Below, piece by piece: positions 10,627 to 64,000 of a DNA stretch of 64,000 bases; position 1 is the stretch's first letter; every line of letters begins with the position of its first letter. A program made the translations under genes and the position numbers. The notes under the pieces were generated by a model. That model saw nothing but the letters and a program-made list of their open reading frames with translations. It did not search any database and had not been told where the DNA came from. Origin of the DNA: a virus. Location: IMG/VR virus record IMGVR_UViG_3300045988_103765; one strand, written 5' to 3'.

Positions 10627-11136
10627 TTAGCCTCCAACAGAAGGTTCAGCCATCTTCATCTCAACCGTCTTGCCATCATCATCAACCAAAGCGGTGATAG
10701 CGATATGCAGTTTCAACGGGGCAGTCTTCAAATCAGTACCATCCCAATTGGTAGCGACCTTACCTTTGTAAACAACAATGTAGTCAATACCATTGTAGAA
10801 CTCCAACTTGAACTGCTTGTAAACGTTGGTGAATGAAGAAGGCATTGTGTACAAGCCAGTAGAAGCGGTAAACTGACCGCCTTCCATAGCGGCAATCTCT
10901 TCCGGTTTGTACTTAACCAAGTCAAATTCAATCTTGTAAGAACCAAGTGTACCCACGCTATCAAGCGGAGTATCATAGAACTCACCGTTAATAGCACTTT
11001 CACTTGCGGTTTCTTGACTGATAGACAAACCTTCCAACACACCCATAAGAGGAGTATAAGAAGCTTCTGCACCAGCCCCGACTTCCGCATAGCCTAAAGA
11101 CTTACATTTGTAAGTCAACAAATCTTGTGTAGCCAT
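10627..11136 (-). CDS. major tail (tube) protein
   Basis: 169 aa. Sits immediately upstream of the chaperone pair, with an attenuator-type hairpin after it. The call is positional. Confidence 0.55.
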   Translation of the reverse strand: MATQDLLTYKCKSLGYAEVGAGAEASYTPLMGVLEGLSISQETASESAINGEFYDTPLDSVGTLGSYKIEFDLVKYKPEEIAAMEGGQFTASTGLYTMPSSFTNVYKQFKLEFYNGIDYIVVYKGKVATNWDGTDLKTAPLKLHIAITALVDDDGKTVEMKMAEPSVGG

Positions 11137-11201
11137 CTCGTCTAATTTTTAAATTATTATTTATATTGATTATAAATGAGGCGTTCATGTCCTTATGGGA
11201 C

Positions 11202-11300
11202 ACTTGACGTTTCATCGAGCCACTACTTCTTAGGGAGCTTGCACTCCGGTCGTCCATAGTTGGGTTCTCACCGTCCAATCCCCGATGCGCCAGCGGTTGG
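11202..11300 (-). ncRNA. orphan copy of the tnpB-2 omegaRNA scaffold / IS right end
   Basis: The reverse complement is 97/99 identical to 63877..63975. Similarity ends at the same nucleotide in both copies (..GATGAAACGTCAAGT). Confidence 0.7.
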
Positions 11301-11307
11301 ATAATTT

Positions 11308-11739
11308 TTACTTTATTAGTACCATAAATGATTTAATATACATGAAGAACAGATTGTCGCTCTCATTATATATATCATCAGTTGACAATATACCGTCAGT
11401 TGATATGTCGTATTTTCCTCCGGCTTTCTCAACTTCTGCATTCACAATATCGGATATGCTTGTTTCATACTTTTGAAGCAAGGTAGTGTCAAGCCGACCT
11501 CTTGTTTTGGGAGGGATATACATCTCAACTGTTACCCGAACACTTGCAAAAGCATTCAAGTTGAATTGGCTCTTATCCTTAATTTCTCCCAAACGGATAA
11601 CCATGAAGCCGCCAGCGTTTATCTCTTCTTCCAGCTTGGTAGGCATTTCCATCGGATAGATGTACTTTGTGACCTTATCTATAAAGAGAGAATAAACATA
11701 TTGGTATATCGGCATTCGCCTTGCATCAATTAAACTCAT
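11308..11739 (-). CDS. tail terminator / tail completion protein (positional)
   Basis: 143 aa. It is the last gene before the tail tube in the head-to-tail operon. Confidence 0.4.
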   Translation of the reverse strand: MSLIDARRMPIYQYVYSLFIDKVTKYIYPMEMPTKLEEEINAGGFMVIRLGEIKDKSQFNLNAFASVRVTVEMYIPPKTRGRLDTTLLQKYETSISDIVNAEVEKAGGKYDISTDGILSTDDIYNESDNLFFMYIKSFMVLIK

Positions 11740-11852
11740 GGGATTTGTTTACAAGGACATTCATATATCCTTGATGGTGTCCCCACTACACCTCTATTGA
11801 TTACTTGATATAATCTTTCACCAATTACTTTTTCTTGAAACGGAACGCTCAT
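11736..11852 (-). CDS. small coupled ORF (38 aa, MSVPFQEKVIGERLYQVINRGVVGTPSRIYECPCKQIP)
   Basis: Below the ORF-track size cutoff. It has ATGA start/stop overlaps with both neighbours and fills an otherwise empty 109-nt gap. Confidence 0.4.
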   Translation of the reverse strand: MSVPFQEKVIGERLYQVINRGVVGTPSRIYECPCKQIP

Positions 11853-15854: not shown

Positions 15855-17612
15855 ATGAGCGAGAAAATACAGAAAGACAAAATTGTTAGTCCATTGCCGG
15901 GTTGCCAATATGAAGCCATCCGAAGCAATGCTGACTATGTTGTACTTACTGGTTCCGGTGGCGGTGGAAAAAGTTTTACATTAGGTTATGCTCCAATTTC
16001 ATATCTATATGAAAACCAAGGAGCAAAAGCTGTATGGTTCATGCGTAATGTTGGCGACTTTTTTGACGCTGGTAAAGTAGTGGATGGTCTTAAAGAAATA
16101 TATCCGCTTATTGATAGACGTTTCAGAATACAACCAAGAGAACCTATTGGAGAAGTCATTAAGGTTCAAGACGATATGGGTGTGAAGTTTTTCAATAGCT
16201 CTGAAATTAAATTCCAGCAGTTAAATAATGAAAGTCCTACTGTAATAGATAAGATATTCAAAGGATTACAATTCAAGAAGGCTATCTTTGAGGAATGCAA
16301 TAAATTTGAATGGAGGACTATTTCTACTTGTCAAACCCGTCTGCGTGCAAACACTAAGGGTAAAGCTCAAATATATCTTGCTCAAAATCCGGAACGTGAA
16401 TGCTTCATACGTAAGCTATGTGGCTGTGGCAAGAATGGTGGTGGATGGATTGGAGATGATGGAAAACCCATTAAAGAAATGAATGGAGTTGTTCGGTTCT
16501 TCCACATTGTAAAGGGTAACTTGGATGAAGTCTATTGGGGAAATACTAAGGAAGAGGTTTATTCTAAATGCAAAGACATTATAGATAACCTTTTGCAGAT
16601 TGACCCGGATATGTCTTATGAGGACTTTATTATGAGCATGGTATTCTTTACTTTTGATGTGAGGGATAACCAAGCTATGCTTAAAGCAAACAAAGGTTAT
16701 CGCGCTATGGCTGCAACATCTGTGCTTGCAGATTCAATGTATGAACCTAATTGGAATTTCTCTATACAAGACGAAAAAGAAGAAGAAGAAGAAGATAATC
16801 TTTCCGAAGTGACAGAGGATGATATTCTCAATATGTTTACTCATGTTTCTCCATGTAAATGCAAGAAGGAGCGTATTACCGTGGATATGGCAACTACTGG
16901 GGAGGATAACTTTGTAATGAAGCATTGGGTAGGTTTCCATTGTGACGATATACAATATTGTATGAAAAACTCCAATCTTGAAGCTGTAAAGATGATTAAG
17001 CAGTTTATGGTTAAGCATGGATTGACTGATAAAGAGCTAATCATTGATGTGCAAGGTAACGGTTTCTTAAAAGAGATTTTCAATCTTGTATCAGCAAATG
17101 GTGGAGGTGTCGCATTCTCCGGAGCGATTGCCGCAACTGCTAAGGGAAAGAAACTGTATGAAAGGTTTAAAGATGAAGCTGCACACCTTGCTACCCAAAT
17201 GATAAAGGCTGGATTGATAACCTATGACAGACAGCTTGCTAAAATGAGATATACACATCAGAAGCTAAAGCGCGAAGGTTCTACTACTGTCTTAAAACAA
17301 ATGCAGTTTGAGAGCAGAATATTCAAATTTAAACGCTTGCCTTCGGGACGAATACAGTTTGAAGGAAAGAAGGAACAACATGCTCTGATAAAAGGCTTTT
17401 CTCCCGACCTTACAGACAACATCATTATGCTTTGTGGGGGATTGTGTTATGACTGTTATAGGGAATTGGCTGGTGCTACTGGTGGAGAATTAAGAAGGAA
17501 ATTATCTCTTGAAGATATAATGAACCAAGTAAATGGTACTGCACAACCAACAAGGAAAAGAGGAAAGATTACTAATTCAGATAAGATATTGAAAATTTTA
17601 AGCAGCATATAA
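15855..17612 (+). CDS. terL: terminase large subunit
   Basis: Walker A motif VLTGSGGGGKSF. 585 aa. Lies upstream of the portal gene. Contains an in-frame (GAA)5 run encoding a poly-Glu patch. Confidence 0.85.
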   Translation: MSEKIQKDKIVSPLPGCQYEAIRSNADYVVLTGSGGGGKSFTLGYAPISYLYENQGAKAVWFMRNVGDFFDAGKVVDGLKEIYPLIDRRFRIQPREPIGEVIKVQDDMGVKFFNSSEIKFQQLNNESPTVIDKIFKGLQFKKAIFEECNKFEWRTISTCQTRLRANTKGKAQIYLAQNPERECFIRKLCGCGKNGGGWIGDDGKPIKEMNGVVRFFHIVKGNLDEVYWGNTKEEVYSKCKDIIDNLLQIDPDMSYEDFIMSMVFFTFDVRDNQAMLKANKGYRAMAATSVLADSMYEPNWNFSIQDEKEEEEEDNLSEVTEDDILNMFTHVSPCKCKKERITVDMATTGEDNFVMKHWVGFHCDDIQYCMKNSNLEAVKMIKQFMVKHGLTDKELIIDVQGNGFLKEIFNLVSANGGGVAFSGAIAATAKGKKLYERFKDEAAHLATQMIKAGLITYDRQLAKMRYTHQKLKREGSTTVLKQMQFESRIFKFKRLPSGRIQFEGKKEQHALIKGFSPDLTDNIIMLCGGLCYDCYRELAGATGGELRRKLSLEDIMNQVNGTAQPTRKRGKITNSDKILKILSSI

Positions 17613-17648
17613 AATGGGCAATTATATAGGACTTGACACTTAAATGAT

Positions 17649-17656
17649 TATCTTTG
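17649..17656 (+). promoter_or_regulatory. -7 box TATCTTTG abutting the tnpB-1 start
   Basis: Matches TAnnTTTG and ends 3 nt before ATG 17660. Confidence 0.4.
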
Positions 17657-17659
17657 TAC

Positions 17660-18838
17660 ATGCAGCGAGTAGAAAGACATATAGCAATAGGCAACAAGCG
17701 GTTGGATGAACTTTGCTTCCTATCCAAGAACTTGTACAACTACGTAAATTATCTTATTAGACAAGAGTTTACGCAGCATAAGAAGCTTTTGTCCGAATAT
17801 GAAGTTACTACCATGCTCGCTAAAGATAAACAAGCGGACTATATAGCCTTGCTTGCACAGACAAGCCAGCAGATTATAAAGATACTTTTCAAGAATTGGA
17901 AGGTATTCTTCAAACTCTGCAAGTTGAAGGACAAACTGAAATCCCGTCCCAAGCTTCCCAAATACAAGCACAAGACAAAGGGACGCAACATTGTGGTATT
18001 TACCAATCAGCAGTGTAAGTTGAAGGATGGATATATCCATTTCCCGAAACGTGCCGGGATAGAACCAATAAGAACCAAAGTGGATAACTTGTGCCAAGTG
18101 AGGATAATTCCACAGTGCAGTTGCCACATAATAGAAGTAGTTTATGAAAAAGAGAAAGAAGAAGCCACCGAATTAGACGATACGACTTATCTAAGTATTG
18201 ATTTAGGACTTGACAATCTCGCCACATCATTTGACCCACAACACAACCGTTGTTTTGTCATTAACGGCAGACCGCTAAAGTCCATGAACCAATTCTTTAA
18301 TAAGCGTAGGGCTTTCCTAATGAGTTTGATAGGTAGTCGGGGAATGAGTAGACGTATCGGACGATTAACTCTAAAGAGAAACTGTAAAGTACACGACTAT
18401 ATGCACAAAGCTTCAAGATTCATAGTAAATTATTGCAAGGATAACCACATTGGAAATATTGTGATAGGAAACAACAAGGATTGGAAGCAGAACTGTAATA
18501 TGGGAAAGGTGAACAATCAGAACTTTGTGAGTATTCCTTTTGAGAAGCTAATCTCCATGATACAATACAAGTGCGAGGAAGTAGGAATTAAGGTCATAGT
18601 CACGGAAGAGAGCTATACTTCCAAAACCGACCACTATTCAGACGAAGCCATGTGCCACCACGAGAACTATATAGGAAAGCGCATAAAGAGAGGTCTATTC
18701 CGTAGCGCATCGGGCAAACTGATAAACGCTGACCTAAACGGAGCGATAGGAATTTTAAGAAAAGTAGTCGGTGAACGCCTTTGGCAAATAGCCGATAGAG
18801 GTGGAGTGGCAACACCATCAAGAATACAATTTGTATAA
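17660..18838 (+). CDS. tnpB: TnpB-family RNA-guided endonuclease (zinc-finger-less subgroup)
   Basis: RuvC triad motifs SIDLGLDN, TEESYTSKT and INADLNGAIGILRK are present. The segment GKRIKRGLF replaces the usual CxxC..CxxC. Confidence 0.85.
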   Translation: MQRVERHIAIGNKRLDELCFLSKNLYNYVNYLIRQEFTQHKKLLSEYEVTTMLAKDKQADYIALLAQTSQQIIKILFKNWKVFFKLCKLKDKLKSRPKLPKYKHKTKGRNIVVFTNQQCKLKDGYIHFPKRAGIEPIRTKVDNLCQVRIIPQCSCHIIEVVYEKEKEEATELDDTTYLSIDLGLDNLATSFDPQHNRCFVINGRPLKSMNQFFNKRRAFLMSLIGSRGMSRRIGRLTLKRNCKVHDYMHKASRFIVNYCKDNHIGNIVIGNNKDWKQNCNMGKVNNQNFVSIPFEKLISMIQYKCEEVGIKVIVTEESYTSKTDHYSDEAMCHHENYIGKRIKRGLFRSASGKLINADLNGAIGILRKVVGERLWQIADRGGVATPSRIQFV

Positions 18839-18858
18839 CTTTAAATAAATGTCATAAA

Positions 18859-20388
18859 ATGATAACGAGAAAAAACATTGATTGGTATTTGTCAGAACCA
18901 ACGCGACTGTTGTTGAAGAAGCCTTTTACGAGAGGTGGAAAATTTCAGTCGTGCAAAACTTATATTGGTGATGTTACACTTAACCAAAAAACAACTGCCC
19001 AGTTGAGCGACTTGACATTGCGAGAGGTTTCACAAGACCTCTATCTGAGAGAGTACGACCCTTCTCTACACAATATAAAGTATAATAATTCAATTCCTAA
19101 GATTGCAGTCAGAGTTGGAGATACTGATATAGTCATAGATGAACTTGTGCTGACAGTTTCTTTGCAAAAGAATATTCATGCGGCACATGTTCTTCATCTT
19201 ACTGCTAATCCTATTTCTTTTAATCTCTGTAATATAGAGAAGAACGATACCATCAGCAAGAAGTTTCAGAATTTCAAGCTGGAATGGAATATGAGAAATA
19301 TGGAGCAAATCAAGTACGAACTAATATCCAAGCAAAAGAAAGTTGGCGATGCTGGCGTACTATTCAAATATGACCCTATAAAGAAAAAGGGAACAGTTAA
19401 AGTCTATTCCTATGATGATGGATATTCAGTCATACCTAACTATAATGAATATGGAGAAGAAATTTCACGCTCCTTGTTTTATAAGATAGATGATTTGACA
19501 GAAGTCATTGATACATTTGATGATAAGTACCTTTATCGTTCAATACGAAGCAAAGAAGGAGAACCTACCAATAATGGATGGGTTACTGAAAGGATTCTTC
19601 ATGGGTTTAGCCGTAATCCTCTTGTCTACCATAGAGGCAAAGTAGCTTGGGAATATTCTCAAAGTATAATTGAGATAATTGAATTGCTTACAAATATACA
19701 TGCTGTGACATTAAAGCGGTTTGGTACTTGGGGATTAGTCTTAAAAGGGGAAATGAATGAAGACAGTTTCAAGCGAGATAACGGCACATTAGTTATCAAT
19801 CTCCCGGCAGACGAAGGTTCAAGCTACAAGACAGAAGCAAAGACTTTGGAGTTTCCAGAGCCGGAAAGTATGATTGCTTATCTGGAATATTTGCTGGAAC
19901 AAGTTTCAATCGCTTCATCTGTCAGCTTTATCACTCCAAAGGATATCACTAATACTGGAAGCGGTGGCAACGGCATTGCATTGTCTATGCGTAATGATAT
20001 TGCACTGGCTACTCAAAGTGTTGCTGATTGGTCTGATTCTATCAATGAGATAACCTATCTCTTCCAAGAGATGTTAGGATTGGAAGAAGACCAGACGAAT
20101 GCTTATACAGATTTGAAAATTAAAGCCAAACTGAATATTTGGAGCATGGAAACCAACAATACTAAGATTACCAACTTAGCTATGGAATCTAAATGGATTT
20201 CCCGACAAACATTGATTGAAGAATCTCCGTCTTCTGCACCGGATGAACTTGACCGAGTAGAAAAAGAGAAAAAGCAAGAAGAAGAAGATGCTATCAAGCA
20301 AGCTGAAAAAGCTGAACGGATAAGCAAGAACAACAATACAGAGATTATCGAAACTTCTAATAAAACTACTTACAGTAGCAACGTTTAA
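18859..20388 (+). CDS. portal protein
   Basis: 509 aa with an acidic C-terminus. It would immediately follow terL if the IS were absent. Confidence 0.7.
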   Translation: MITRKNIDWYLSEPTRLLLKKPFTRGGKFQSCKTYIGDVTLNQKTTAQLSDLTLREVSQDLYLREYDPSLHNIKYNNSIPKIAVRVGDTDIVIDELVLTVSLQKNIHAAHVLHLTANPISFNLCNIEKNDTISKKFQNFKLEWNMRNMEQIKYELISKQKKVGDAGVLFKYDPIKKKGTVKVYSYDDGYSVIPNYNEYGEEISRSLFYKIDDLTEVIDTFDDKYLYRSIRSKEGEPTNNGWVTERILHGFSRNPLVYHRGKVAWEYSQSIIEIIELLTNIHAVTLKRFGTWGLVLKGEMNEDSFKRDNGTLVINLPADEGSSYKTEAKTLEFPEPESMIAYLEYLLEQVSIASSVSFITPKDITNTGSGGNGIALSMRNDIALATQSVADWSDSINEITYLFQEMLGLEEDQTNAYTDLKIKAKLNIWSMETNNTKITNLAMESKWISRQTLIEESPSSAPDELDRVEKEKKQEEEDAIKQAEKAERISKNNNTEIIETSNKTTYSSNV

Positions 20389-27600: not shown

Positions 27601-28956
27601 TATCCGGGTACAGGTGATTCTAACACTGTAATGATAACTATATCGAATTCTTATTCATATTCAATGAATAGGTCTGTAACTTTTATAATATCATTGACAC
27701 ATCATGAAAGTAAACCTATAATAACACAATTGAATGGTTATCCTGATCTATTTAAAGCAGTAAGAATTTTAGCTCCCAAAGACAGTAATGGAAGTTATAC
27801 ATATGGTGATAGATATGTAGACATATCCTATTCTACTTCAGCTGCAAGTGAAGCATCCAATACTATTTATTTAACTGCTATAAATCTTAATTATAAGGAT
27901 TCGTATCATTTTATTCCAAATAAAAACTTTGTAGATGGAACAACTATTCCTTCTAATTATGGTGAAATATGGAATTTTCCTTTTACTACTGGCTTAGGTA
28001 GTAATGCTAATATATATTCACAAAATGGTTTGATTGAGGGAGGGACTTTAAAACTAAGTTCTACAAGTACTTTTGCTGGTAAAGCTACATTCAACGGAGG
28101 GCTATCTGGAACATTGACGGGTTCTCTAAGTGGTAATGCTACAACCGCTACAACCTTACAGACTTCACGTACAATAAATGGTACATCGTTCAACGGTTCA
28201 GCTAATATTACAACTTCTTATTGGGGAACTACAAGAACGATTTGGGGACAGTCAGTAAACGGGTCGGCAAATGTCAGTGGAGCTATGACTGGGGTTACAA
28301 GCATTACTGCAACTGGTCTTATAAGAACTTCAAATCTGTTCTCTGCTGGCGATGGAGGAAGCGATAATGCGTATGGTTATTATAACTGTACTCGTCCCAA
28401 TACAGCTAATACCGGATATGTATGCTATGCAATGGTTAGAAGTGGTACTATAGCAATGGGACTTGGATATTATAATAATGAAATTGTTTTAGGTAATGCA
28501 GGTACTTCAAGACAATTTAATGAAAAATGGTTACAAATAAGTGGTTCCAGATTACTAATTAATGGCAATATAGAGGCAACTGGCGCAGTTACAGCCAAGT
28601 CTTCCTCTTCTGACATAAGATTGAAGAAAAATATCAAAGAATACAATGCTTTGGATATTATTCACAAGTTAAAGTCAGTGAAGTATTACTGGAATGATAC
28701 CGCAAAAGCAAACTCTCCAATCTTTAATGACAATGAGGAGCATTACGGACTTATTGCACAAGACTTGCTAATAAATGGATATAGCCAATGGGTAAGTAAC
28801 TGTTTTAAAGATTATTATGTAATACAATACGAACGTTTAATACCCGTATTATGGCGAGGTATTCAGCAAGTAGATAATGAGGTAGCTACCCTCAAAAAGA
28901 AGATAGCTACCTTAGAAAAAGAACTTAGTTCTGTAAAGAGGCAACTAAGCCTTTAA
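21601..28956 (+). CDS. tail fibre / host-specificity protein (2451 aa) with C-terminal S74-type intramolecular chaperone
   Basis: Contains fibre motifs (TLQTSRTINGTSFNGSANI), coiled coils (KAAEEAKKEA), a poly-Gly linker, and a C-terminal SSSSDIRLKKNI...HYGLIAQDL segment typical of the auto-cleaving chaperone. Confidence 0.85.
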   Translation: MANEVNPILNIYNEDGTPFHDISLRKHTFSTIVMSLNDKIEGEFYYKDNSLSFTLQEYVEYKGIKYILKNPPVVVRKGMTSENSEAKGMTKYSCTFYHEMIELYNIPFTDIAISSSEESYRSEKRTFSWIGTLSMFVQKINSCLVGTKWTCKLQPTFVDDGTMSDVLSFSNQFISDVCKTAYETWKVPFVVDGYTIWFGKPSKEILDDENKPYIFKFGQGVGLKNNDCTPKNNKVITRIAGYGSNINIPYGYPIITDADGNRIEHPYTRDTLMPSVYVEAVRNKVLFGSKKPLIDYYDADSSYPTPINPLAPVFHIQEFSSIQPTIEGMTYKGQAIDLFKEVIVPEGGWDDYIDPETGEVRQSYFDVTLYPLGFDLYAQAAVTSGMTFSMKSGDTLGANYEVAVDWEDVKKNFYVTDEAGNIVFKPNGEQRDYAKYPDSTDQAITIKLTKDLDTFGTIMPSKFQQVKTGDKFVILHIEMPQAYIDKAQERLDVAMKRYMLENNMPLYDYPLSFDEHFLETNQAILAQIKPNTIVRFLYKDNEDAMELSVKEMSIQYGTNPLPTYNITLTDEVSIVLNQIGQIADGLSKLGSQVAQLQAIYGLDIVGELNKKLSRVKDDTAQGMITFLRGLKVGSYVTGSTGGIFYADTDGKSHAELDYLTVRMKAMFYALEIIKTGVIGGRQMITPGGAIECIKIEDRNDILDEEGNKTGENVWDYWRCYFYQDDGTEALDNRFRAGDMALAQDFNIKEGVYENVSNHYFWRLVVNVGTNYIDISKTDADAASDAPRVGDTICQLGNKTFVDANGVTHVEDKTRQNAIIFSAVDTFSPSMTLYAGINSYSYLNKEYVSYGVDKTTNLAYMNVYGNSYIGARDKSSYMKFDTVTGVEIKGKLVTKSGKDVEETFNSFQDQIDGVKETWYGEYTPTLTNQPAVDWNTEALKKRHEGDVFTNIQEYVDDETTPDAGKSWRWVKTGDTWGWKQIADNDTSKAYLEAAKAQKAAEEAKKEANDAKQTVTNMKDFTDEAFKDGIVDRQEAAAIEKYLNSIKSIQKSVAESYSKVYGNPLLSGTAKVELKTAYDGFNVATTELITAIDDAIADGVATSTEVALVDGRYDTFNTKYGDFIAYLNAANNFIQDKINTSAEDAKKAAEEAQKAADAAKAEAEAAKQRLDKWAEDGVISPTEKQSIKDEIVRIDADKTNITAGYTLYSLGSPTGYLNAHSNYRAVLVTLSASTPENITIPSDFASKQSAYYNQRTAALNAISDAAKAAVDTVKKDLAGYEYLKKAWKESTTIEGGVIQNALNMLGYTDPVAGFKVMSGMNGVYDATKVGGGIASWYGGSMKDRADYTEANMPSDVAKAIIRMDGSGYLASGAVWWGTDGVFHADPQSFIIKKNQLGDYVSLFQIVYRSGTPKTISYMIPQYPMQKLTVSDYIEIGTTGYRIGVDSANNAIKVYKEDGSAVNFYASGAVSAKGISSGSGGGGGGLIDTVYGYSSLGGTFADSTLSDTFNAYTINKLASRITELEKNGGGGTGIAGIKVNDQTYAPDTSKYITLPNYPSTTITGTGNVLTNATYDNSTRVLTLTKGNIATTANHLERYAQITSTAIDTVSTFTASKTSVWEANGTAYGTTGANDTVLNIGSAANRLFQLRAAYNSDDFYFRGVGASSFRTWYKVLHEGNYASALDSKYLKLSGGTLTGVLTVGDTSTIAEVVTIKTRNVNGNHIQFVSNTIPTAEVGYLTSFGAYLYNDKLDSHPTLCLGLADNLRDAIIYRYAGVNYNVWHSGSLKPYQFTNWADTKSVNHVPNDYDSLFIMRGIKNLTTIGLSGGGVYATVWGWRGWLDRTGGHAWEIASTNEDLYTRHGETTSWTSWAKILNSSNYQNYPNTKVGISDFWLYPEHSNEINFGGTYTGSNHIYFGYRSKDNRPRTTEYHFGQNDASLHGEYFQSYIPTGTQPFQCVSTTTCTNLNADMVDGYHSNDLTKRVFIAGISGGAGSKWIRIGVLKYPGTGDSNTVMITISNSYSYSMNRSVTFIISLTHHESKPIITQLNGYPDLFKAVRILAPKDSNGSYTYGDRYVDISYSTSAASEASNTIYLTAINLNYKDSYHFIPNKNFVDGTTIPSNYGEIWNFPFTTGLGSNANIYSQNGLIEGGTLKLSSTSTFAGKATFNGGLSGTLTGSLSGNATTATTLQTSRTINGTSFNGSANITTSYWGTTRTIWGQSVNGSANVSGAMTGVTSITATGLIRTSNLFSAGDGGSDNAYGYYNCTRPNTANTGYVCYAMVRSGTIAMGLGYYNNEIVLGNAGTSRQFNEKWLQISGSRLLINGNIEATGAVTAKSSSSDIRLKKNIKEYNALDIIHKLKSVKYYWNDTAKANSPIFNDNEEHYGLIAQDLLINGYSQWVSNCFKDYYVIQYERLIPVLWRGIQQVDNEVATLKKKIATLEKELSSVKRQLSL
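28057..28075 (+). repeat. inverted repeat, left arm (AGTTCTACAAGTACTTTTG), inside the fibre gene
   Basis: A perfect 19-nt inverted match to 29944..29962. It is in codon phase and encodes SSTSTF. Confidence 0.9.
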
Positions 28957-29917
28957 GCCTATTAATCTCTGATTTAGCATGTTCCAATTCCTTTCTCATT
29001 CGTTCTTGCTCTGATTCAACAAGACGGATAGAAAGGATATTGGCTTGCACAGAACCAATGATTGTTGCGGTAAGGTCGGGAGATAAATAATTCAAGCTAC
29101 CATATCCATATTCATCCTTTTCGTGACAGAAATTTGTGATACCAGCTTTCACCGCATTTTGATATACAAGTCCGGTATGACGTTTATTGTCTATCCTATC
29201 TTGGTATAAATCCAATGCTTTTTTGTTATAATTATAGTCATAAACTCTGCCAAGTTTTAGTAGTCTTTCTCGGTAATCTATAAGCCCATCGTAATTCTCT
29301 TTTAATCTAAAGTCAGAAGTAGCTTTAGCGGTGATTGCAGCCGTAGCAGTAATACTTCCAGTAAAAGCCCATGTACTACCATCATATTCCATAACATACG
29401 ATTTATTTGTAGAGCTTGTCGGGTTAGCAGTACCTCTCCACCAATGCCACAAACCATTTGAATGACAGCCAAGTCCCATTGTATAATTACCTCCAACAAT
29501 TTCAATGCTATCATGGCTTGTATTTGCAAATCTTGCTCCTACATTATAAGCCTTAGCACCACTTCCAGTTATTCCCGTACTATTTATCCAACCATGTAGG
29601 GTGCAATCTCCAAATTCCATATTTGCCCAAGATGAACTGCTTCCTGCCCGCCAATACCATTTTTTAGGAACAGACCTACCGCCATAACTTGCACCTCTAT
29701 AATTAACATGAAACTCAGTGCCTCCAGCTATAATAATCTCATTTCCACCGCTTGAAAGTTCCAAATAAGAACCATTTTGGGTTATACCAGATGGATTCAT
29801 ATAAAGACCAGAATTAGCATAGACCCAAGCTTGAATATACGCATCTATAAATCTATTGCTACTTGAACCTATTCTGTAATTATTATTGCTTAACGGAAAG
29901 ATATTACCAGAATACAT
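28925..29917 (-). CDS. alternative tail-fibre C-terminal cassette with S74-type chaperone (apparently silent in this orientation)
   Basis: Contains the fibre motif NYRIGSSSNRFIDAYIQ and SDFRLKENY...HTGLVYQN. The frame is open without a start codon up to 30001 and includes the inverted repeat. No minus-strand -7 box lies upstream. Confidence 0.6.
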   Translation of the reverse strand: MYSGNIFPLSNNNYRIGSSSNRFIDAYIQAWVYANSGLYMNPSGITQNGSYLELSSGGNEIIIAGGTEFHVNYRGASYGGRSVPKKWYWRAGSSSSWANMEFGDCTLHGWINSTGITGSGAKAYNVGARFANTSHDSIEIVGGNYTMGLGCHSNGLWHWWRGTANPTSSTNKSYVMEYDGSTWAFTGSITATAAITAKATSDFRLKENYDGLIDYRERLLKLGRVYDYNYNKKALDLYQDRIDNKRHTGLVYQNAVKAGITNFCHEKDEYGYGSLNYLSPDLTATIIGSVQANILSIRLVESEQERMRKELEHAKSEINRLKGLVASLQN

Positions 29918-29943
29918 TCCACCATTAAAAGTTGCAGTTTCAC

Positions 29944-29962
29944 CAAAAGTACTTGTAGAACT
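29944..29962 (-). repeat. inverted repeat, right arm
   Basis: Reverse complement of 28057..28075. It lies 9-15 codons upstream of ATG 29917, in frame. Confidence 0.9.
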
Positions 29963-30015
29963 AAGGTTTGTATCAAATTGGTAGCCAGATATTTGGTGCT
30001 TTCAAAAAAACACCT

Positions 30016-30023: not shown

Positions 30024-30039
30024 CACATAACAAATTGAT

Positions 30040-30780
30040 ATGAATATGAAGTTTAGAGATTACATTGACCTTGCAGAAAAGTATGAGGTAGAGAGTTTTA
30101 TCAAGTCTGACCCTATACAATTCCCACGAAGATTTAAGGATAGAAAAGACATCGAAGTAGCGGCAGTCATAGCAGCTTGGCTTGCTTATGGCAGGCGTTC
30201 AGTATTCATTCCCAAAATAGATTATATTCTTACAGAGATAATGGGGAATAAGCCTTTTCAATATATATATGGCGTGGAATGGAATAAATACAAGGATAAT
30301 TATACGAGCTTATACCGTATGACTTCTTGGCATTGCTTTGCTTCCCTTTGTGATAAACTTCATTCCATATACATGAAGTACCCTAATCTTGAAGATGCTC
30401 TTGGACGTGTTACTTATTCGCAGAAATGTACCTACTATTGCCAAGGATTATGCCATTTATTACATGGTGAAACAATGATACCCAGTCCAAACAGTAATTG
30501 TGCAAATAAAAGAGTGAACATGCTACTTAGATGGATGATAAGGAAAGATAGTGTAGTTGACATTGGATTATGGAAAACTCTATCACCTTCTCGGCTTCTT
30601 GTTCCTTGTGATACACATTCTTTGCAGTCGGCAGTTGAATTTGGAATTATCCCCAAAGTAGATGAATCAAGAAAGACTTGTATAAAAGTGACTGAATTTG
30701 CAAAAAAAGTATTTCCTTCTGACCCTGCAAGGTTGGATTTTAGTTTGTATGGCTATGGAGTGGAGAAATCAGAGAAATAA
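30040..30780 (+). CDS. TIGR02757 / DUF2400 family protein
   Basis: The N-terminal pattern DPIQFPRRF..D.E.AA.IAAWLAYGRR and the ~246-aa length are as I recall for this family. Confidence 0.6.
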   Translation: MNMKFRDYIDLAEKYEVESFIKSDPIQFPRRFKDRKDIEVAAVIAAWLAYGRRSVFIPKIDYILTEIMGNKPFQYIYGVEWNKYKDNYTSLYRMTSWHCFASLCDKLHSIYMKYPNLEDALGRVTYSQKCTYYCQGLCHLLHGETMIPSPNSNCANKRVNMLLRWMIRKDSVVDIGLWKTLSPSRLLVPCDTHSLQSAVEFGIIPKVDESRKTCIKVTEFAKKVFPSDPARLDFSLYGYGVEKSEK

Positions 30781-48608: not shown

Positions 48609-49208
48609 ATGGATAATAGCAATAATGAGATATGGAAAGATATTATTGGATTTGAGCAATATTATCAAGTAAGCAATTTAGGTCGTGTTAGAAGCAAAGA
48701 TAGAATTGTCATAACTCCTAAAACTTCTTATTTTAAAAAAGGAAGAATATTAATTCCTTCTTTAGATGGCAAAGGAAATTATTTATTTGTAGGTCTACAT
48801 GTTAACAATAAAGTTAAACTTATCTATATTCATAGATTGGTTGCTCAGAATTTTATACCAAATCCTCACAACTATAAGCAAGTTAACCATATCAATGAAA
48901 ATAAAAAAGATAATAGGGCAGATAATTTAGAATGGTGTACAGCTGAATATAATATGAACTATGGTACAGCCATGCAAAGGGCGAAAGAAACCTATGCTTC
49001 ACATTATGATAGGAGTGCTATTGCTAAAAATAATGCTATTAAAAAGAAAGTTATACAATATACACTTGATGGCAAGTATATTAAAGAATGGGATTCTTTA
49101 ACAGATATACAAAATGAATTAGGCTTTTGCAGAAGCAATATCTCAAAATGTTGTGAAGGGAAGTATAAACAAGCTAATAACTTTATATGGAAATTTAAAA
49201 AAGATTGA
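48609..49208 (+). CDS. HNH homing endonuclease (NUMOD4 + HNH_3 type)
   Basis: The N-terminus EIWKDIIGFEQYYQVSNLGRVRS is NUMOD4-like. HRLVAQNFIPNP..QVNHINENKKDNRADNLEW is the HNH part. Confidence 0.8.
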   Translation: MDNSNNEIWKDIIGFEQYYQVSNLGRVRSKDRIVITPKTSYFKKGRILIPSLDGKGNYLFVGLHVNNKVKLIYIHRLVAQNFIPNPHNYKQVNHINENKKDNRADNLEWCTAEYNMNYGTAMQRAKETYASHYDRSAIAKNNAIKKKVIQYTLDGKYIKEWDSLTDIQNELGFCRSNISKCCEGKYKQANNFIWKFKKD

Positions 49209-49210
49209 TT

Positions 49211-50029
49211 ATGAAAAAGTTTGTATCATGGAGAAGGGTTTCTACCATATATCAAAAGAAAACCGGGTTGGGTCTTGAATCACAAAAAAATATAATAAAT
49301 CATTTTGTTCAAATAGAAAACGGAACTTTAATAGCTGACTTTTGCGAAGTATATACGGGTAAGGACCTAAATGAATGCACTGAATTAAGGAAGGCAATAT
49401 CTTTTGCAAAAGAAAATAATGCAATATTAATAATAGCTAAAACTGACCGATTTAGAAATACGGTTGAAGCATTACAAATATATGACGAAATGGGAGAAGG
49501 AAATATTTATTTTTGTGATATTCCACATACAGACAAATTTACCCTTACCTTATTTTTCGCTTTGGCAGAAAGGGAAGCTTTATTAGTATCTATAAGAACA
49601 AAGGCAGCTTTAGCGGTGAATAAAGCAAAAGGCATACTATCTGGACGTGCTAATAGTAATTATCAAATTAAAGATGAAACAAAAGAAAAAGCTATTCTCA
49701 AAGGGGCTATTACAAAAAATAAAGCTACGATTGAAAGTGAAGAATTTTCTTGTTTCTGTAGAATACTACGAAAAGTGATACCTATACTGAATGAAAATTC
49801 TACGGATGAAGAACTATTCTTCTTAAACTGGACTAAATACCGTACAAGTTTTGTCCTTACTAAAGATTACAAAGCGGAAATAAAGGAACTCATGCAGGAA
49901 GCTAATAGGAACAACAGCAAACTGTTTATCGGAGTTGACTTCACGAATGCTAATTTTTATCAGTATATTAGTAGCCGCGTACAAGCTACGTTCAATTCAA
50001 TTTCTAAATACAAAGAATATAACTTATGA
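49211..50029 (+). CDS. small serine recombinase (resolvase/invertase catalytic domain, atypical C-terminus)
   Basis: Contains WRRVSTIYQ (catalytic Ser), KTDRFRN and an E-helix (ALAEREALLVSIRTKAALAVNKAKG). The C-terminal ~120 aa has no recognisable HTH. Confidence 0.7.
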   Translation: MKKFVSWRRVSTIYQKKTGLGLESQKNIINHFVQIENGTLIADFCEVYTGKDLNECTELRKAISFAKENNAILIIAKTDRFRNTVEALQIYDEMGEGNIYFCDIPHTDKFTLTLFFALAEREALLVSIRTKAALAVNKAKGILSGRANSNYQIKDETKEKAILKGAITKNKATIESEEFSCFCRILRKVIPILNENSTDEELFFLNWTKYRTSFVLTKDYKAEIKELMQEANRNNSKLFIGVDFTNANFYQYISSRVQATFNSISKYKEYNL

Positions 50030-50580
50030 AGATACTTCAAATAGCCCTAATAACTAAAAAGGGCAACGTCTTTAATGTAAAGATGCAGATTGACGAAGTT
50101 GTGTATGAGAGTAAAGAAGAAGTAAGGGAAAAACTACTTTCTGTATTTGCAAATAGGAAGGATGCTATAGTAGACGTTGTAATCCATTCCATGCAAGACG
50201 AATTAGGGCTTTCCGACTACTCCAATGAACAACTTAAGGCTGAACTGAAAAGAAGAGTAAATATCGCGCGTATGAAAGCGATTAGAGAGAAGCCCAAGTA
50301 TTATTATTGGGAAGGAATTGTAGTTGATATTCTGAGGCGATATAATAGGTTTGCCAAGTGGAAGTTTAAAATAGATTCCGAAGAGTTGGCGGCAAGTGAA
50401 AATTTTTCGTATTTGAATAAATGGCACGCCTTTGAGATGATAAGTGGTGCTTTCAATATGACAACTGCACTAAAGGTTGGGGATAGGGTCAAATTAAGAT
50501 ATCGTGTAGTAAAAAGCCATTTCCGCTCCTATAGAGATTCTAAAATCGTATCAGTAATAGAACGGGCTGACTTGTCATAA
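50026..50580 (+). CDS. hypothetical protein
   Basis: ORF track. Overlaps the previous gene by 4 nt. Confidence 0.55.
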   Translation: MKILQIALITKKGNVFNVKMQIDEVVYESKEEVREKLLSVFANRKDAIVDVVIHSMQDELGLSDYSNEQLKAELKRRVNIARMKAIREKPKYYYWEGIVVDILRRYNRFAKWKFKIDSEELAASENFSYLNKWHAFEMISGAFNMTTALKVGDRVKLRYRVVKSHFRSYRDSKIVSVIERADLS

Positions 50581-50617
50581 TAGCAGGCAGTGACTTGTAA
50601 ACTAAAACTATAAAGAG

Positions 50618-50920
50618 ATGAAAGCAATATTAATAGCAACCAAAGAAACAATTGACGTAATAAAGGCTGGGGAATATACCAACATTTACGTAACAGAGGA
50701 CGGGAAACAGTCGTTCTTAGGTGATGAACTTATTCTTCTTGATGAAGTGAAGAGAGAAGCAAAGGGGCGTGATTGGGAAGAGGTTCGGATAAATGCTGCA
50801 ATAGCAACAATGCAAACACTTTTAAATAATCCACAATATGAGAACAAATCAATAATAGCCATAGCTGACATGAGCGTAAGTATGGGTGATGTATTGATTA
50901 AAAAGCTGAAAGGAGAATAA
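50618..50920 (+). CDS. hypothetical protein
   Basis: ORF track. Confidence 0.5.
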   Translation: MKAILIATKETIDVIKAGEYTNIYVTEDGKQSFLGDELILLDEVKREAKGRDWEEVRINAAIATMQTLLNNPQYENKSIIAIADMSVSMGDVLIKKLKGE

Positions 50921-50977
50921 TATGGGATGTGATTGTTGCCCGGATTGTGTAGAACAAAAATAACAAATAGAATAGTT

Positions 50978-51172
50978 ATGAAAACAGTAAAGTTGTCAAA
51001 TTTGAATGTTGGTGATATTTTCATGTTTAAAGACGTGATGTATGAAATTATCAACAAAACACAATGGATATCTACATGTAAATATGTTAACGATAAATAT
51101 CAATATGGAGGCTGGCTATCACATAAGTATCTATATTGTAATTTTAGTAACTATACAAAAGTTGAAATATGA
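50978..51172 (+). CDS. hypothetical protein
   Basis: ORF track 50933..51172. The first ATG is at 50978. Confidence 0.45.
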   Translation: MKTVKLSNLNVGDIFMFKDVMYEIINKTQWISTCKYVNDKYQYGGWLSHKYLYCNFSNYTKVEI

Positions 51173-55508: not shown

Positions 55509-55691
55509 ATGACTGAAAAGATATTTAAAAAAGAAGACAAGATTTATAGACTTACTTGCGAATTAATTATAGAATATAATAAGGTAAGTTATAGATTAAA
55601 TCTTACATGGAGAATGAAAGGAAAGCATAGATGGTGGGTATTGCCCGGATATTATGAATGCAGCCTATCAGATGTTGTGTTGGGTGATTGA
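55509..55691 (+). CDS. chimeric small ORF running into direct-repeat copy A
   Basis: Its last 15 codons read repeat copy A in a different frame from the homologous gene end at 57656..57730. Confidence 0.35.
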   Translation: MTEKIFKKEDKIYRLTCELIIEYNKVSYRLNLTWRMKGKHRWWVLPGYYECSLSDVVLGD

Positions 55692-55986
55692 AAACGGACA
55701 TTTAGAAACAGACAAGTAATGATATGGAACGAATAGTAGAATTAAGAGGATTAGAAGGAGTATATTGTAGTGATGTAGTTCATGCTTATATGTCTTGCAA
55801 TGCAGAAGACGTTCAAAAAGCTTTGGAGATTGGGATTCCATGTACTGGAGCAAATGACTACGGAGCGTATAACATCTATTTTGACGATTACGGAAGAATA
55901 TGTTTTGAATATATGCAACGTTGTGTAACAAGAGAATACAGATACGTTGAATCAATAGAAGAGGCTATAGACTGGATGAATAGGTT
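55645..55986 (+). repeat. 342-bp perfect direct repeat, copy A
   Basis: Identical to 57656..57997 (offset 2011). Near-identity continues for ~24 more nt. Confidence 0.95.
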
Positions 55987-57348: not shown

Positions 57349-57730
57349 ATGGACGAGAAATTTAAAAAGAAGTACGGTATCTACGATGGTATAGATACAA
57401 GCGCATTCAAGTATGTGTTGGCATGATGAATGCTACCCAAATATATCAGAAGATATGAAGTATAATTATGGACGATGCTATGTAAAACTTGGGAATTTAA
57501 TTGGCTGCTTTCCTGCTTATACCTTGCAGGACATCATACAGAGGTTACCGCCCTCTATCAATATATGTATGCTGCATATATATCCTGCTGCTGACTTGTG
57601 GTATTTCGTGTACATGGATTCTTACACCCGTACTATTCTAAGCACGAAGTATAGTCCGGATATTATGAATGCAGCCTATCAGATGTTGTGTTGGGTGATT
57701 GAAAACGGACATTTAGAAACAGACAAGTAA
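57349..57730 (+). pseudogene. paralogue family A gene split by a frameshift (57349..57426 + 57413..57730)
   Basis: The 25-aa ORF MDEKFKKKYGIYDGIDTSAFKYVLA aligns with the N-terminus of 54842..55285 (LGVDISKGSMVW) and then switches to the +1 frame ORF. Confidence 0.4.
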
Positions 57731-57997
57731 TGATATGGAACGAATAGTAGAATTAAGAGGATTAGAAGGAGTATATTGTAGTGATGTAGTTCATGCTTAT
57801 ATGTCTTGCAATGCAGAAGACGTTCAAAAAGCTTTGGAGATTGGGATTCCATGTACTGGAGCAAATGACTACGGAGCGTATAACATCTATTTTGACGATT
57901 ACGGAAGAATATGTTTTGAATATATGCAACGTTGTGTAACAAGAGAATACAGATACGTTGAATCAATAGAAGAGGCTATAGACTGGATGAATAGGTT
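57656..57997 (+). repeat. 342-bp perfect direct repeat, copy B
   Basis: Identical to 55645..55986. Confidence 0.95.
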
Positions 57998-62588: not shown

Positions 62589-62749
62589 TTTGTAATCTCG
62601 TTTATTTTAAGTCGAAAGGGAGGGAGTAACAATTGTGCTTTCTCTCTTTCTTTTAAGGGAGTTAAGCGGGAAATCCCGTTCCTTTAGGGGTGGGATGAAA
62701 GCGTTTACGAAATTTTTAGCAAAATATTTGTGTAGTTCTAAAATAGTTG

Positions 62750-62757
62750 TATATTTG
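62750..62757 (+). promoter_or_regulatory. -7 box TATATTTG abutting the tnpB-2 start
   Basis: Matches TAnnTTTG and ends 4 nt before ATG 62762. Confidence 0.4.
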
Positions 62758-62761
62758 TAGT

Positions 62762-63988
62762 ATGAAATATAGAGCATACAAATATAGGCTATATCCAAAC
62801 GAGGAGCAGAAGGTGCTTATAGCAAAGCATCTCGGTTCTTGTCGTTTCATCTATAACTATGCTCTTGATAAGAAAGTGAGAGCCTATCAAACCGATAAAA
62901 CAAATCTTTCTCGTTTTGACATTCAAGCAGATTTGCCTAATATGAAGAAATCAGAAGAGTATTGTTGGCTCAAAGAGGTTAATTCACTTTCACTTCAAGC
63001 ATCGCTTGCTAATCTTGATTCAGCCTACACTAAGTTTTTTAGAGAACATAAAGGTTTTCCAAGATTTAAGTCTAAAAAAGATAGCAAGCAAAGTTTCTCT
63101 ATACCGCAAAATACTAAGGTAGATTTTGAAAATGGTCGTGTGTTCATTCCTAAATTCAAGAATGGCATTAAGGCAAAACTTCATCGCTCCTTTGAAGGTA
63201 TAGTTAAATCTTCTACTATTTCAAGAACTGCAACAGATAAGTATTTCATTTCAATCCTTGTGGAAGTGAATGAACCCGATGTGCCTATGAAACCAATTTG
63301 CGAGAACAAAGCAGTTGGTATAGACCTCGGTATAAAAACATTTGCTGTCCTTTCTGATGGAACTGAAATACCTAATCCTAAATACTTAAAGCAATCACTT
63401 GATAAGGTCAAAAAACTTCAACGCTCTCTATCTCACAAGACCAAAGGTTCTAAGAATAGAGATAAAGCGAGAAGAAAATTGGCATTAGTACACGAGCAAG
63501 TAACCAATAGAAGAAATGACTTTTTACATAAGGTTACATCCTATCTTGTGAGAAACTATGACGCTATTTGTCTTGAGGACTTGAATGTAAAGGGAATGGT
63601 TAAGAACCACCACCTTGCTCAAGCACTTGAGGATATTGCCATAGGTGCATTCAACACACTATTGGAATACAAAGCAAAAGAACGAGGAGTAAATATCCTT
63701 CGCATTGGTCGCTTTGAGCCAAGTTCCAAGATGTGCGAATGCGGATATATAAATAGAGAACTTAAACTTTCCGACCGTAAGTGGACTTGTCCCAAGTGTG
63801 GAATTACAAATGACAGAGATTTACTTGCAGCCCGAAATATCAAACGCTTCGGACTACAAGCACAGAATTTATTAACCCAACCGATGGCGCATCGGGGATT
63901 GGACGGTGAGAACCCAACTATGGACGACCGGAGTACAAGCTCCCTAAGAAGTAGTGGCTCGATGAAACGTCAAGTTGTTCAAGTGTAA
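62762..63988 (+). CDS. tnpB: TnpB RNA-guided endonuclease (canonical, with zinc finger)
   Basis: N-terminus MKYRAYKYRLYPN. RuvC D (VGIDLGIK) and E (ICLEDLNVKGM), zinc finger CECG..CPKCG, and D (NDRDLLAARNI). The track start at 62747 is a TTG inside the promoter box. Confidence 0.9.
   Translation: MKYRAYKYRLYPNEEQKVLIAKHLGSCRFIYNYALDKKVRAYQTDKTNLSRFDIQADLPNMKKSEEYCWLKEVNSLSLQASLANLDSAYTKFFREHKGFPRFKSKKDSKQSFSIPQNTKVDFENGRVFIPKFKNGIKAKLHRSFEGIVKSSTISRTATDKYFISILVEVNEPDVPMKPICENKAVGIDLGIKTFAVLSDGTEIPNPKYLKQSLDKVKKLQRSLSHKTKGSKNRDKARRKLALVHEQVTNRRNDFLHKVTSYLVRNYDAICLEDLNVKGMVKNHHLAQALEDIAIGAFNTLLEYKAKERGVNILRIGRFEPSSKMCECGYINRELKLSDRKWTCPKCGITNDRDLLAARNIKRFGLQAQNLLTQPMAHRGLDGENPTMDDRSTSSLRSSGSMKRQVVQV
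63877..63975 (+). ncRNA. predicted omegaRNA (reRNA) scaffold, 3' part, overlapping the tnpB-2 3' end
   Basis: This is the position expected for IS200/IS605 omegaRNA. Contains hairpins (CCGATG-GCG-CATCGG; GGAG-TACAAG-CTCC). It is duplicated at 11202..11300. Confidence 0.55.
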
Positions 63989-64000
63989 GCTTGGATATAA

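Follow-up and report, generated by a model that had tools for sequence, protein, structure and literature searches.

A probable 144-bp, protein-less derivative of a TnpB-carrying transposon in a phage tail operon

The window, as the whole 64,000-nucleotide stretch of viral DNA analysed here is called (IMG/VR record IMGVR_UViG_3300045988_103765), has a conspicuous gap in its tail operon. This gap most probably represents a 144-bp internally deleted, protein-less, non-autonomous derivative of a TnpB-carrying transposon. To judge from its flanks, the insertion is complete with a target-site duplication and is not a bare right end. By the sequence of their ends, the phage elements to which it belongs are non-autonomous IS1595-type transposons, and their cargo is either tnpB with a guide module or the guide module alone.

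The tail-operon gap and its flanking genes

The gap at 11137-11307 contains no ORF of at least 60 aa in the ORF list. The genes that bound it, and the repeat that lies within it, are as follows.

11308..11739, minus strand: upstream structural gene, 143 aa, with the insertion within its last five codons
10627..11136, minus strand: downstream gene, 169 aa, in the tail-tube position by gene order
11202..11300, minus strand: 99-nt repeat, core of an omegaRNA-scaffold-like module, 97/99 identical to 63877-63975 (plus strand), 2 mismatches

The downstream gene is followed by two small ORFs and then by a 1723-aa tape measure gene. The names tail terminator and tail tube, which the first-pass annotation had given to the two flanking genes, reflect gene order only; PHROG lists unknown function and PDB gave no match. 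No assignment for either gene came from Pfam, PHROGs, a PDB sequence search or a single-sequence AlphaFold model (pLDDT 32). Junctions elsewhere in the operon had been described as at most ~70 nt, which is slightly off, since a 109-nt stretch free of listed ORFs is found at 11740-11848. Its counterpart in Bacteroides phage C3_41T2LP (OR296439.1) is a small annotated CDS. This phage is the closest isolate, ~97% identical to the window, and possesses the same insertion in the same gap.

The pair 11202-11300 (minus) and 63877-63975 (plus) is the sole long inverted repeat within the 64-kb window, and the claimed 97/99 minus-strand match to the 3' end of the tnpB-2 element was borne out by sequence comparison. 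The two substitutions also fall as described, one in a loop and one breaking a stem. The first is in a tetraloop (GGAGU-[G/A]CAA-GCUCC), and the second, within the CCGAU/AUCGG stem, leaves C.U where an A-U pair stood, the mismatch being carried by the orphan copy of the window. The first-pass annotation was right to see in the orphan the 3' module of a tnpB element, where TnpB omegaRNAs are encoded, copied without a protein gene and co-oriented with the late operon.

Structure of the tail-gap element

The limits of the element were obtained by comparing filled and empty alleles among related phages.

11324..11331, minus strand: left copy of the target-site duplication, 8 bp, TCATTTAT, inside the CDS of the upstream gene (filled versus empty alleles)
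11180..11323, minus strand: element, 144 nt (filled versus empty allele comparison)
11180..11201, minus strand: short terminal hairpin variant and right end, GTCCCATAAGGACATGAACGCC, which recurs at other loci
11172..11179, minus strand: right copy of the target-site duplication, TCATTTAT (filled versus empty alleles)
11164..11179, minus strand: candidate guide TCATTTATAATCAATA, 16 nt directly past the true right end and unchanged in the empty allele

The sequence in the window reads ..ATTAAA, TCATTTAT, the element itself (GGTACTAATAAAGTAAAAATTATCCAACCG ... GGACATGAACGCC), TCATTTAT again and AATCAATATAAAT.. The element consists, in order, of GGTACT, which is a remnant of the left inverted repeat, AATAAAGTAAAAATT, the scaffold module, a short terminal hairpin and the right end ..ACGCC. 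In relatives it is 145 bp long with a perfect duplication, and the window copy is 1 nt shorter. The insertion point lies between ..AAA and TCATTTAT, upstream of the putative tail tube gene, and 16 nt of the element fall within ORF 11308..11739. In translation, the last five codons and the stop of the upstream gene come from the element, giving ..MYIKSF-MVLIK-stop versus ..MYIKSF-IINIK-stop in empty alleles.

At the left end of the tail-gap copy GGTACT is followed by AATAAAGTAAA. The motif AATAAAGTAAAAATT matches the left ends of tnpB elements and appears to be the left-end remnant of a tnpB-bearing parent. The tail-gap copy shows the left-end signature of the tnpB-bearing type, GG[C/T]ACTTATATACAAAGTAA..TTAAATAAAGTAAA.., from which the left end of the mini elements differs. 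The copy most plausibly began, therefore, as a full element and was shortened by internal deletion. It has kept 6 nt of the left repeat, a scaffold module of ~105 nt, the short hairpin and the right end; the two inverted repeats are not both intact, the left one being reduced to GGTACT. The right end is a degenerate short variant (GGCGTTCATGTCC.. versus GGCGCTTATATCC..), and the short hairpin variant is also found at loci L010, L011, L016, L052 and L055.

Going by these signatures, deletion would have removed the promoter, tnpB and most of the left repeat from a parent copy. With the left repeat mostly gone, the tail-gap copy is probably no longer transposable. It would persist as a passenger of the late operon and spread between phages through homologous recombination. 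An internally deleted IS relic had been one of the two readings offered by the first-pass annotation. The left-end signature points to it, but a full-length copy at the tail-gap site was found neither in IMG/VR nor in metagenomes, and searches for the tail-gap target sequence next to an intact left end gave 0 matches in IMG/VR and 0 in metagenomes.

The anatomy proposed at first was that of a solo IS200/IS605 right end, ending at ..GTCAAGT, with no left end and followed by the guide GTCCCATAAGGACATG. The two window copies do part exactly there, after ..GAAACGTCAAGT (..GTCAAGT), but this break point is inside the element and is not a transposon end. Homology continues for ~30 nt (TGTTCAAGTGTAAGCTTGGATATAAGCGCC), an extension shared by 5/6 copies in the initial comparison and by most of the 144 counted in all. 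In C3_41T2LP the tail-gap copy runs on after ..GAAACGTCAAGT as TGTTCAAGTGTAAGCTTGGATATAAGCGCC, as the sequence after the tnpB-2 gene of the window does. This phage has four copies, of which three are outside the tail gap, and none of these three adjoins a tnpB. All of them share the extension, so the right end of the family was placed ~30 nt past ..GAAACGTCAAGT, at ..A[A/G]CGCC. As the proposed right end was wrong, so was the guide, and GTCCCATAAGGACATG belongs to the element's own terminal hairpin, a variant that recurs at several unrelated loci. A left-end remnant (GGTACT and AATAAAGTAAA) is present as well, and the 8-bp duplication flanks the element. With family homology reaching ..CGCC and both duplications and inverted repeats found, a solo right end was ruled out, and the anatomy built on it is very improbable.

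Chance similarity or an assembly artefact has a negligible chance of explaining the repeat, in view of the 97/99 match, of a 22-mer from it that had 0 matches in 100 shuffles and of the identical insertion in the independently sequenced isolate OR296439.1 and 31 IMG/VR contigs; by these comparisons, both the repeat and its link with the 3' end of tnpB-2 are real and non-random.

Filled and empty alleles in related phages

A total of 44 loci were fetched, each of which encodes a relative of the downstream (10627..11136) protein. The short-hairpin allele, like that of the window, is present in 23, the long-hairpin allele in 8 and the empty allele in 12, and one distant locus has an unrelated junction. 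Empty alleles contain one copy of TCATTTAT (..ATTAAA TCATTTAT AATCAATA..; in full, ..ATGTATATTAAA TCATTTAT AATCAATATAAAAT..), and filled alleles contain two, flanking the element. A search of relatives for the empty site and for what flanks it had been suggested as a check. The site was found empty in 12/44 contigs, and it does have a motif-guide arrangement, with AAA followed by a perfect 16-nt match to the candidate guide.

Filled and empty states are interspersed among relatives that share identical flanking genes. This region recombines heavily irrespective of the insertion, and the patchy distribution is therefore not specific evidence.

The long-hairpin allele (e.g., L108, L110, and L113, compared with the short-hairpin L095 and L097) has a 10-nt deletion made up of the right duplication plus AA, so its guide position reads TCAATATAAATAATAA. 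A perfect match to this sequence is found in the short-hairpin allele, right after ..TTTATAA. By sequence, one tail-gap allele could in principle target the other.

The element family

One exact-pattern scan of IMG/VR yielded 91 loci, to which C3_41T2LP and the window were added. In total, 144 copies were found in 47 closely related phage sequences, and they fall into five classes.

21 copies: tnpB-linked (type-b, TnpB of 406 aa), at the 3' end of the gene
76 copies: mini elements without ORF, ~212-223 bp (about 215 bp)
32 copies: at the tail-gap site
8 copies: other truncated class
7 copies: cut by contig ends

There is at most one tnpB-linked copy per contig, and several near-complete genomes have solo copies with the type-b tnpB absent. 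The type-b parent is 1.33 kb long and has the inverted-repeat ends GGCACTTATATACAAAG on the left and ...CTTGGATATAAGCGCC on the right, and the same ends are found in the ~215-bp minis. Comparison of GGCACTTATATACAAAG with GGCGCTTATATCCAAGC, which is the right end reverse-complemented, shows the repeats to be imperfect, 13/16 of the first positions matching. Perfect 8-bp duplications were identified at 11 independent sites, including that of a full-length 1331-bp tnpB element (filled versus empty), and filled versus empty comparisons at many loci agree with 8-bp duplications. Three differently deleted derivatives have all kept the module from ATTAACCC onward.

A second 5'-truncated class, in which ..CTTTAAATA is joined to GTATTAACCC, was considered and set aside, as a full mini copy at that site, shortened by a microhomology deletion, accounts for it. 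Several type-b tnpB copies, L023, L057, and L090 among them, have a common upstream small ORF and differing 3' flanks, and others have 10-19-nt deletions beside the left end. These features suggest that the larger tnpB elements may also move as bigger cassettes or by recombination, not by clean transposition. The window itself contains an empty site at 30035-30042, TTGATATG, which overlaps the ATG of a DUF2400 gene. In C3_41T2LP this site is filled by a 219-bp mini element at 29213-29431.

An IS1595-type backbone

The elements had been assigned to IS200/IS605, a group with a subterminal hairpin near either end that is moved by a Y1 HUH TnpA and inserts directly 3' of a 4-5-nt motif. Members of that group have neither inverted repeats nor target-site duplications (PMC13565253), whereas the phage elements end in inverted repeats and show perfect 8-bp duplications at 11 sites, that of TCATTTAT included. 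Such features are typical of IS1595, whose members make 8-bp duplications and have ends starting with GG (PMC8101967). For the C3_29k insertion, TTGAT had been considered as a target motif in the style of IS200/IS605; this was dropped, as at least 8 sites have different 8-bp duplications.

The 17-nt left end was scanned against 185,579 species genomes, which gave 31 matches. In six bacterial genomes the left-end motif abuts a gene of ~305 aa, and the shared end is 17-25 nt long. Two of these six genes were scanned and both encode IS1595-family DDE transposases (DDE_Tnp_IS1595, E = 2e-42 and 3e-38), in which the IS1595 zinc ribbon was also found. The elements that contain them (L162 and L166) possess complete repeat pairs and the 8-bp duplications TATTGATA and ATTATTTG.

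Matching ends of autonomous IS1595-family elements were thus found in Bacteroidota genomes, and also in one related phage. The contig of the latter (L073, IMGVR_UViG_3300029858_000019) has an autonomous IS1595-family element on its reverse strand at ~22-2861. It encodes a 306-aa transposase, 95% identical to one of the bacterial IS1595 transposases, along with a passenger ORF of 234 aa. Over its first 25 nt the left end of this element agrees with that of the mini elements without a mismatch, and its flanks showed no matching 8-bp duplication. The family therefore shares its inverted repeats with an autonomous DDE_Tnp_IS1595 element.

In the window, no IS1595 transposase was detected by tblastn, one being present in L073 and a fragment in L079, and no tnpA was found among the window ORFs examined. 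It is from the shared ends, the duplications and the adjoining DDE transposases that the phage elements are taken to be non-autonomous IS1595-type transposons. They would be moved in trans by an IS1595-type transposase rather than by the TnpA of IS200/IS605.

The two TnpB proteins of the window

Two tnpB genes, which are unrelated to each other, are present in the window.

62657..64000, plus strand: tnpB-2 element, cut by the window end, with an IS605-like left end GGGAGTTAAGCGGG.. after CTTTTAA
62762..63988, plus strand: tnpB-2 ORF, with Pfam OrfB_IS605, a Cas12f1-like TNB domain and an HTH domain
63698..64000, plus strand: 3' module of tnpB-2, of type-b origin by recombination, with scaffold and long terminal hairpin
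17654..18838: tnpB-1
17617-18853: tnpB-1 element, with IS1595-like ends and the 8-bp duplication ATAAAATG at 17609-17616 and 18854-18861

TnpB-2 is a full-length homologue of ISDra2 TnpB (E = 3e-78). Its RuvC D/E/D triad is intact, in the motifs GIDLG, LEDLN, and NDRDLLAARNI. The last 302 nt of tnpB-2 have 94% DNA identity to type-b, and the 312 aa upstream are only ~45% identical. Loci L170-172 represent the same locus with the same left end and the first 312 aa 100% identical to TnpB-2, and they have a different 3' end. Their right end is IS605-like, ..GGGTAGCTCACC followed by ACAATTCTGACC, and the insertion is after TTTAA. The crossover appears to lie at ~63698-63735, a 38-nt stretch identical in both lineages. 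From this comparison TnpB-2 is a recombinant chimera, and it may be incompatible with the scaffold of the tail-gap copy. The first-pass annotation had taken TnpB-2 for the partner of the orphan. As only its last 302 nt derive from the element family, TnpB-2 is not a clean cognate partner. In C3_41T2LP, the site of the tnpB-2 element is empty.

The tnpB-1 gene is 97% identical to a gene of C3_41T2LP at 49924-51102. Its element lies precisely after the stop codon of the terminase gene and before the start codon of the portal gene, a site that is empty in C3_41T2LP. Among TnpB-1-type elements (L226-L271), the flank past the right end starts with AT in 32/34 loci. Four sites with perfect duplications are preceded by TT or AT, not AAA, and the duplications start with AT.

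Further genes of the mobile-element type are found in the early region, at 48609-50029, where an HNH/NUMOD homing-endonuclease-like ORF (48609..49208) is directly 5' of a serine recombinase (49205..50029). Two other repeats were also observed. A 300-nt direct repeat with 99% identity (55638-55937 and 57649-57948, 2 kb apart) lies in each copy over a 93-aa plus-strand ORF. A 51-nt inverted repeat that is 76% complementary (28050-28100 and 29919-29969) joins the 3' part of the gene for a 2451-aa tail protein and the start of an opposite gene for a 330-aa protein with a Peptidase_S74 chaperone domain.

Possible functions of the tail-gap copy

The omegaRNA of TnpB systems overlaps tnpB at its 3' end and extends to the right end of the element, and the next ~16 nt serve as guide (PMC10055086). 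When this layout, known from ISDra2 and other TnpB systems, is applied to the tail-gap copy, the candidate guide is 11179..11164. The phage module has the position of an omegaRNA. In the 21 tnpB-linked copies it spans the last ~40 codons of the gene and continues to the right end, and the stop codon is in the loop of the terminal hairpin. Rfam gave nothing relevant, for the whole window at gathering thresholds or for the 3' module at E up to 10. The folding energies of three copies are no better than those of shuffles (z = -0.2 to -0.8). Across an alignment of 89 unique copies, RNAalifold identified a single covarying pair (AU versus CG), the copies being too similar to each other for more. 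The putative identity of the module as an omegaRNA thus draws on its position and on the homology of TnpB to ISDra2 TnpB.

A scan of the gap for promoters and terminators gave no signal, and no Bacteroidetes TAnnTTTG box was found in it. Together with the co-orientation with the operon, this leads one to expect read-through transcription. With the full scaffold and the right end still in place, such transcripts might yet give rise, by processing, to an omegaRNA whose guide would be TCATTTATAATCAATA, which matches the uninserted allele beside AAA. In the empty allele, TTAAA directly precedes TCATTTATAATCAATA. The only perfect match to TCATTTATAATCAATA in the window is TCATTTATAATCAATA itself, and so there is no self-target beyond the site.

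It is possible, if doubtful, that the tail-gap copy is an active trans-acting omegaRNA. A type-b-compatible TnpB would process the late transcript into an omegaRNA with the guide TCATTTATAATCAATA and then cut the empty allele (AAA plus target) in co-infecting relatives. Repair templated by the filled genome would copy the element in (non-restorative homing), or the competitor would simply suffer damage. Such a function would be a layer over the 144-bp anatomy and not an alternative to it. It is consistent with the perfect 16-nt match next to AAA, and with the sites of the scaffold-bearing elements. At the 11 clean insertion sites, A is found at -1 and -2 in 11/11 and at -3 in 10/11, so that AAA or TAA adjoins the guide flank in every case. 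AAA makes up ~8% of leader trinucleotides in the window, and the enrichment over the 11 sites has P ~1e-8. This motif could be a preference of the transposase. The TnpB-1 elements, however, have similar repeats and a different motif (TT before the insertion, AT after it), which hints that the motif goes with the nuclease and not with the transposase. AAA or TAA would accordingly be the nuclease's own motif.

Other observations also fit a guide that acts in trans. Scaffold polymorphisms of the tail-gap copy are common to other copies, so that it alone does not show decay; the module from ATTAACCC was kept in all three kinds of deleted derivatives; the catalytic triad of TnpB-2 is intact; and PATEs (PMC10055086) and non-restorative homing into co-infecting phages (PMC13565253) are published concepts. 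The mixture of filled and empty states among relatives with identical flanks would be expected too, but the heavy recombination of the region makes it non-specific. Against a trans-acting guide, the sole scaffold-matched TnpB in the window is the chimera, to which another lineage, with a different omegaRNA, contributed the first 312 aa. Type-b tnpB is absent from complete or near-complete relatives such as C3_41T2LP, where four copies are retained, and the window copy has the C.U mismatch in its first stem. A silent remnant is more likely in this genome than active use as a guide.

The element could instead have been exapted to act in cis, as an RNA that forms a structured spacer or processing site and so adjusts the expression of the abundant tail tube protein relative to that of the upstream gene. 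It is directly 5' of the putative tube gene and present in ~31-32/44 relatives, and members of the family are co-oriented with start codons and 2-35 nt upstream of them. A role of this kind is nevertheless improbable. The 12 relatives with the empty allele do well without the element, neither a promoter nor a terminator motif was found in the gap and the folding stability is ordinary. The module is also 5' of many unrelated genes, which fits an insertion preference rather than regulation.

Relation to known systems

An orphan omegaRNA is not new in itself, because guide-only derivatives of TnpB transposons are known in bacteria. PATEs are protein-less IS200/IS605 derivatives that encode omegaRNAs and need TnpB in trans (Meers et al. 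2023, PMC10055086). The tail-gap element, read as an internally deleted transposon, resembles them in being short, non-autonomous and ORF-free and in keeping transposon ends and the omegaRNA region, and it would likewise need TnpB in trans. PATEs have hairpin ends and move by peel-and-paste, whereas the phage family has inverted repeats and 8-bp duplications. Its host here is a phage genome, and most of the left end is gone from the tail-gap copy.

TnpB-2 and the type-b TnpB are full-length homologues (~408 aa, RuvC D/E/D) of ISDra2 TnpB (PDB 8EXA and 8H1J). As in ISDra2, the RNA-like module, recognized here by its sequence, overlaps the 3' end of the gene and reaches the right end. Unlike ISDra2, which has a Y1-TnpA, the motif TTGAT and no duplication, the phage elements have an AAA flank and another transposon backbone. 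They share with IS1595 the repeats starting with GG, the 8-bp duplication and terminal 17-25 nt identical to ends adjacent to DDE_Tnp_IS1595 genes. Unlike IS1595 insertion sequences, they are without a transposase and carry tnpB and a guide module, or a guide module alone.

Fanzor in DDE transposons, which have inverted repeats and duplications, is comparable in that an RNA-guided nuclease and its omegaRNA are contained in a cut-and-paste element, with the guide RNA overlapping the terminal repeat. Fanzor is eukaryotic, whereas the present case concerns a prokaryotic virus, a bacterial-type TnpB and non-autonomous elements. The proposed cut of an insertion-free co-infecting relative, followed by recombinational copying, would resemble the intronless homing and marker exclusion of free-standing phage homing endonucleases. 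Unlike theirs, the proposed recognition would be RNA-guided and could span many guide-only loci.

No paper linking TnpB with IS1595-type elements was found in a search of the literature. A 2026 review describes pairings of TnpB with DDE transposases as rare in prokaryotes and does not list IS1595; the idea of homing into co-infecting phages has already been raised there in principle (PMC13565253). What is unusual here is, first, the presence of a bacterial-type TnpB and guide module in elements with inverted repeats and 8-bp duplications that share the ends of IS1595 DDE elements. The second is the setting, which offers 144 copies in 47 closely related phage genomes and many pairs of filled and empty alleles. 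For annotation, the upstream gene demonstrates that a transposon end can supply the final codons of a structural gene.

A broader picture, more speculative still and rather unlikely as a whole, is that in this clade of Bacteroides phages TnpB and its omegaRNA were captured by IS1595-type DDE transposons. The guide-only minis, up to six per genome and just upstream of genes, would act as distributed trans guides, with AAA as the target-adjacent motif and the tail-operon copy as one of the guides. One TnpB gene could then drive homing or exclusion at multiple loci. These phages offer a natural system in which to ask whether TnpB helps cut-and-paste DDE transposons and whether RNA-guided nucleases mediate homing or competition between co-infecting phages.
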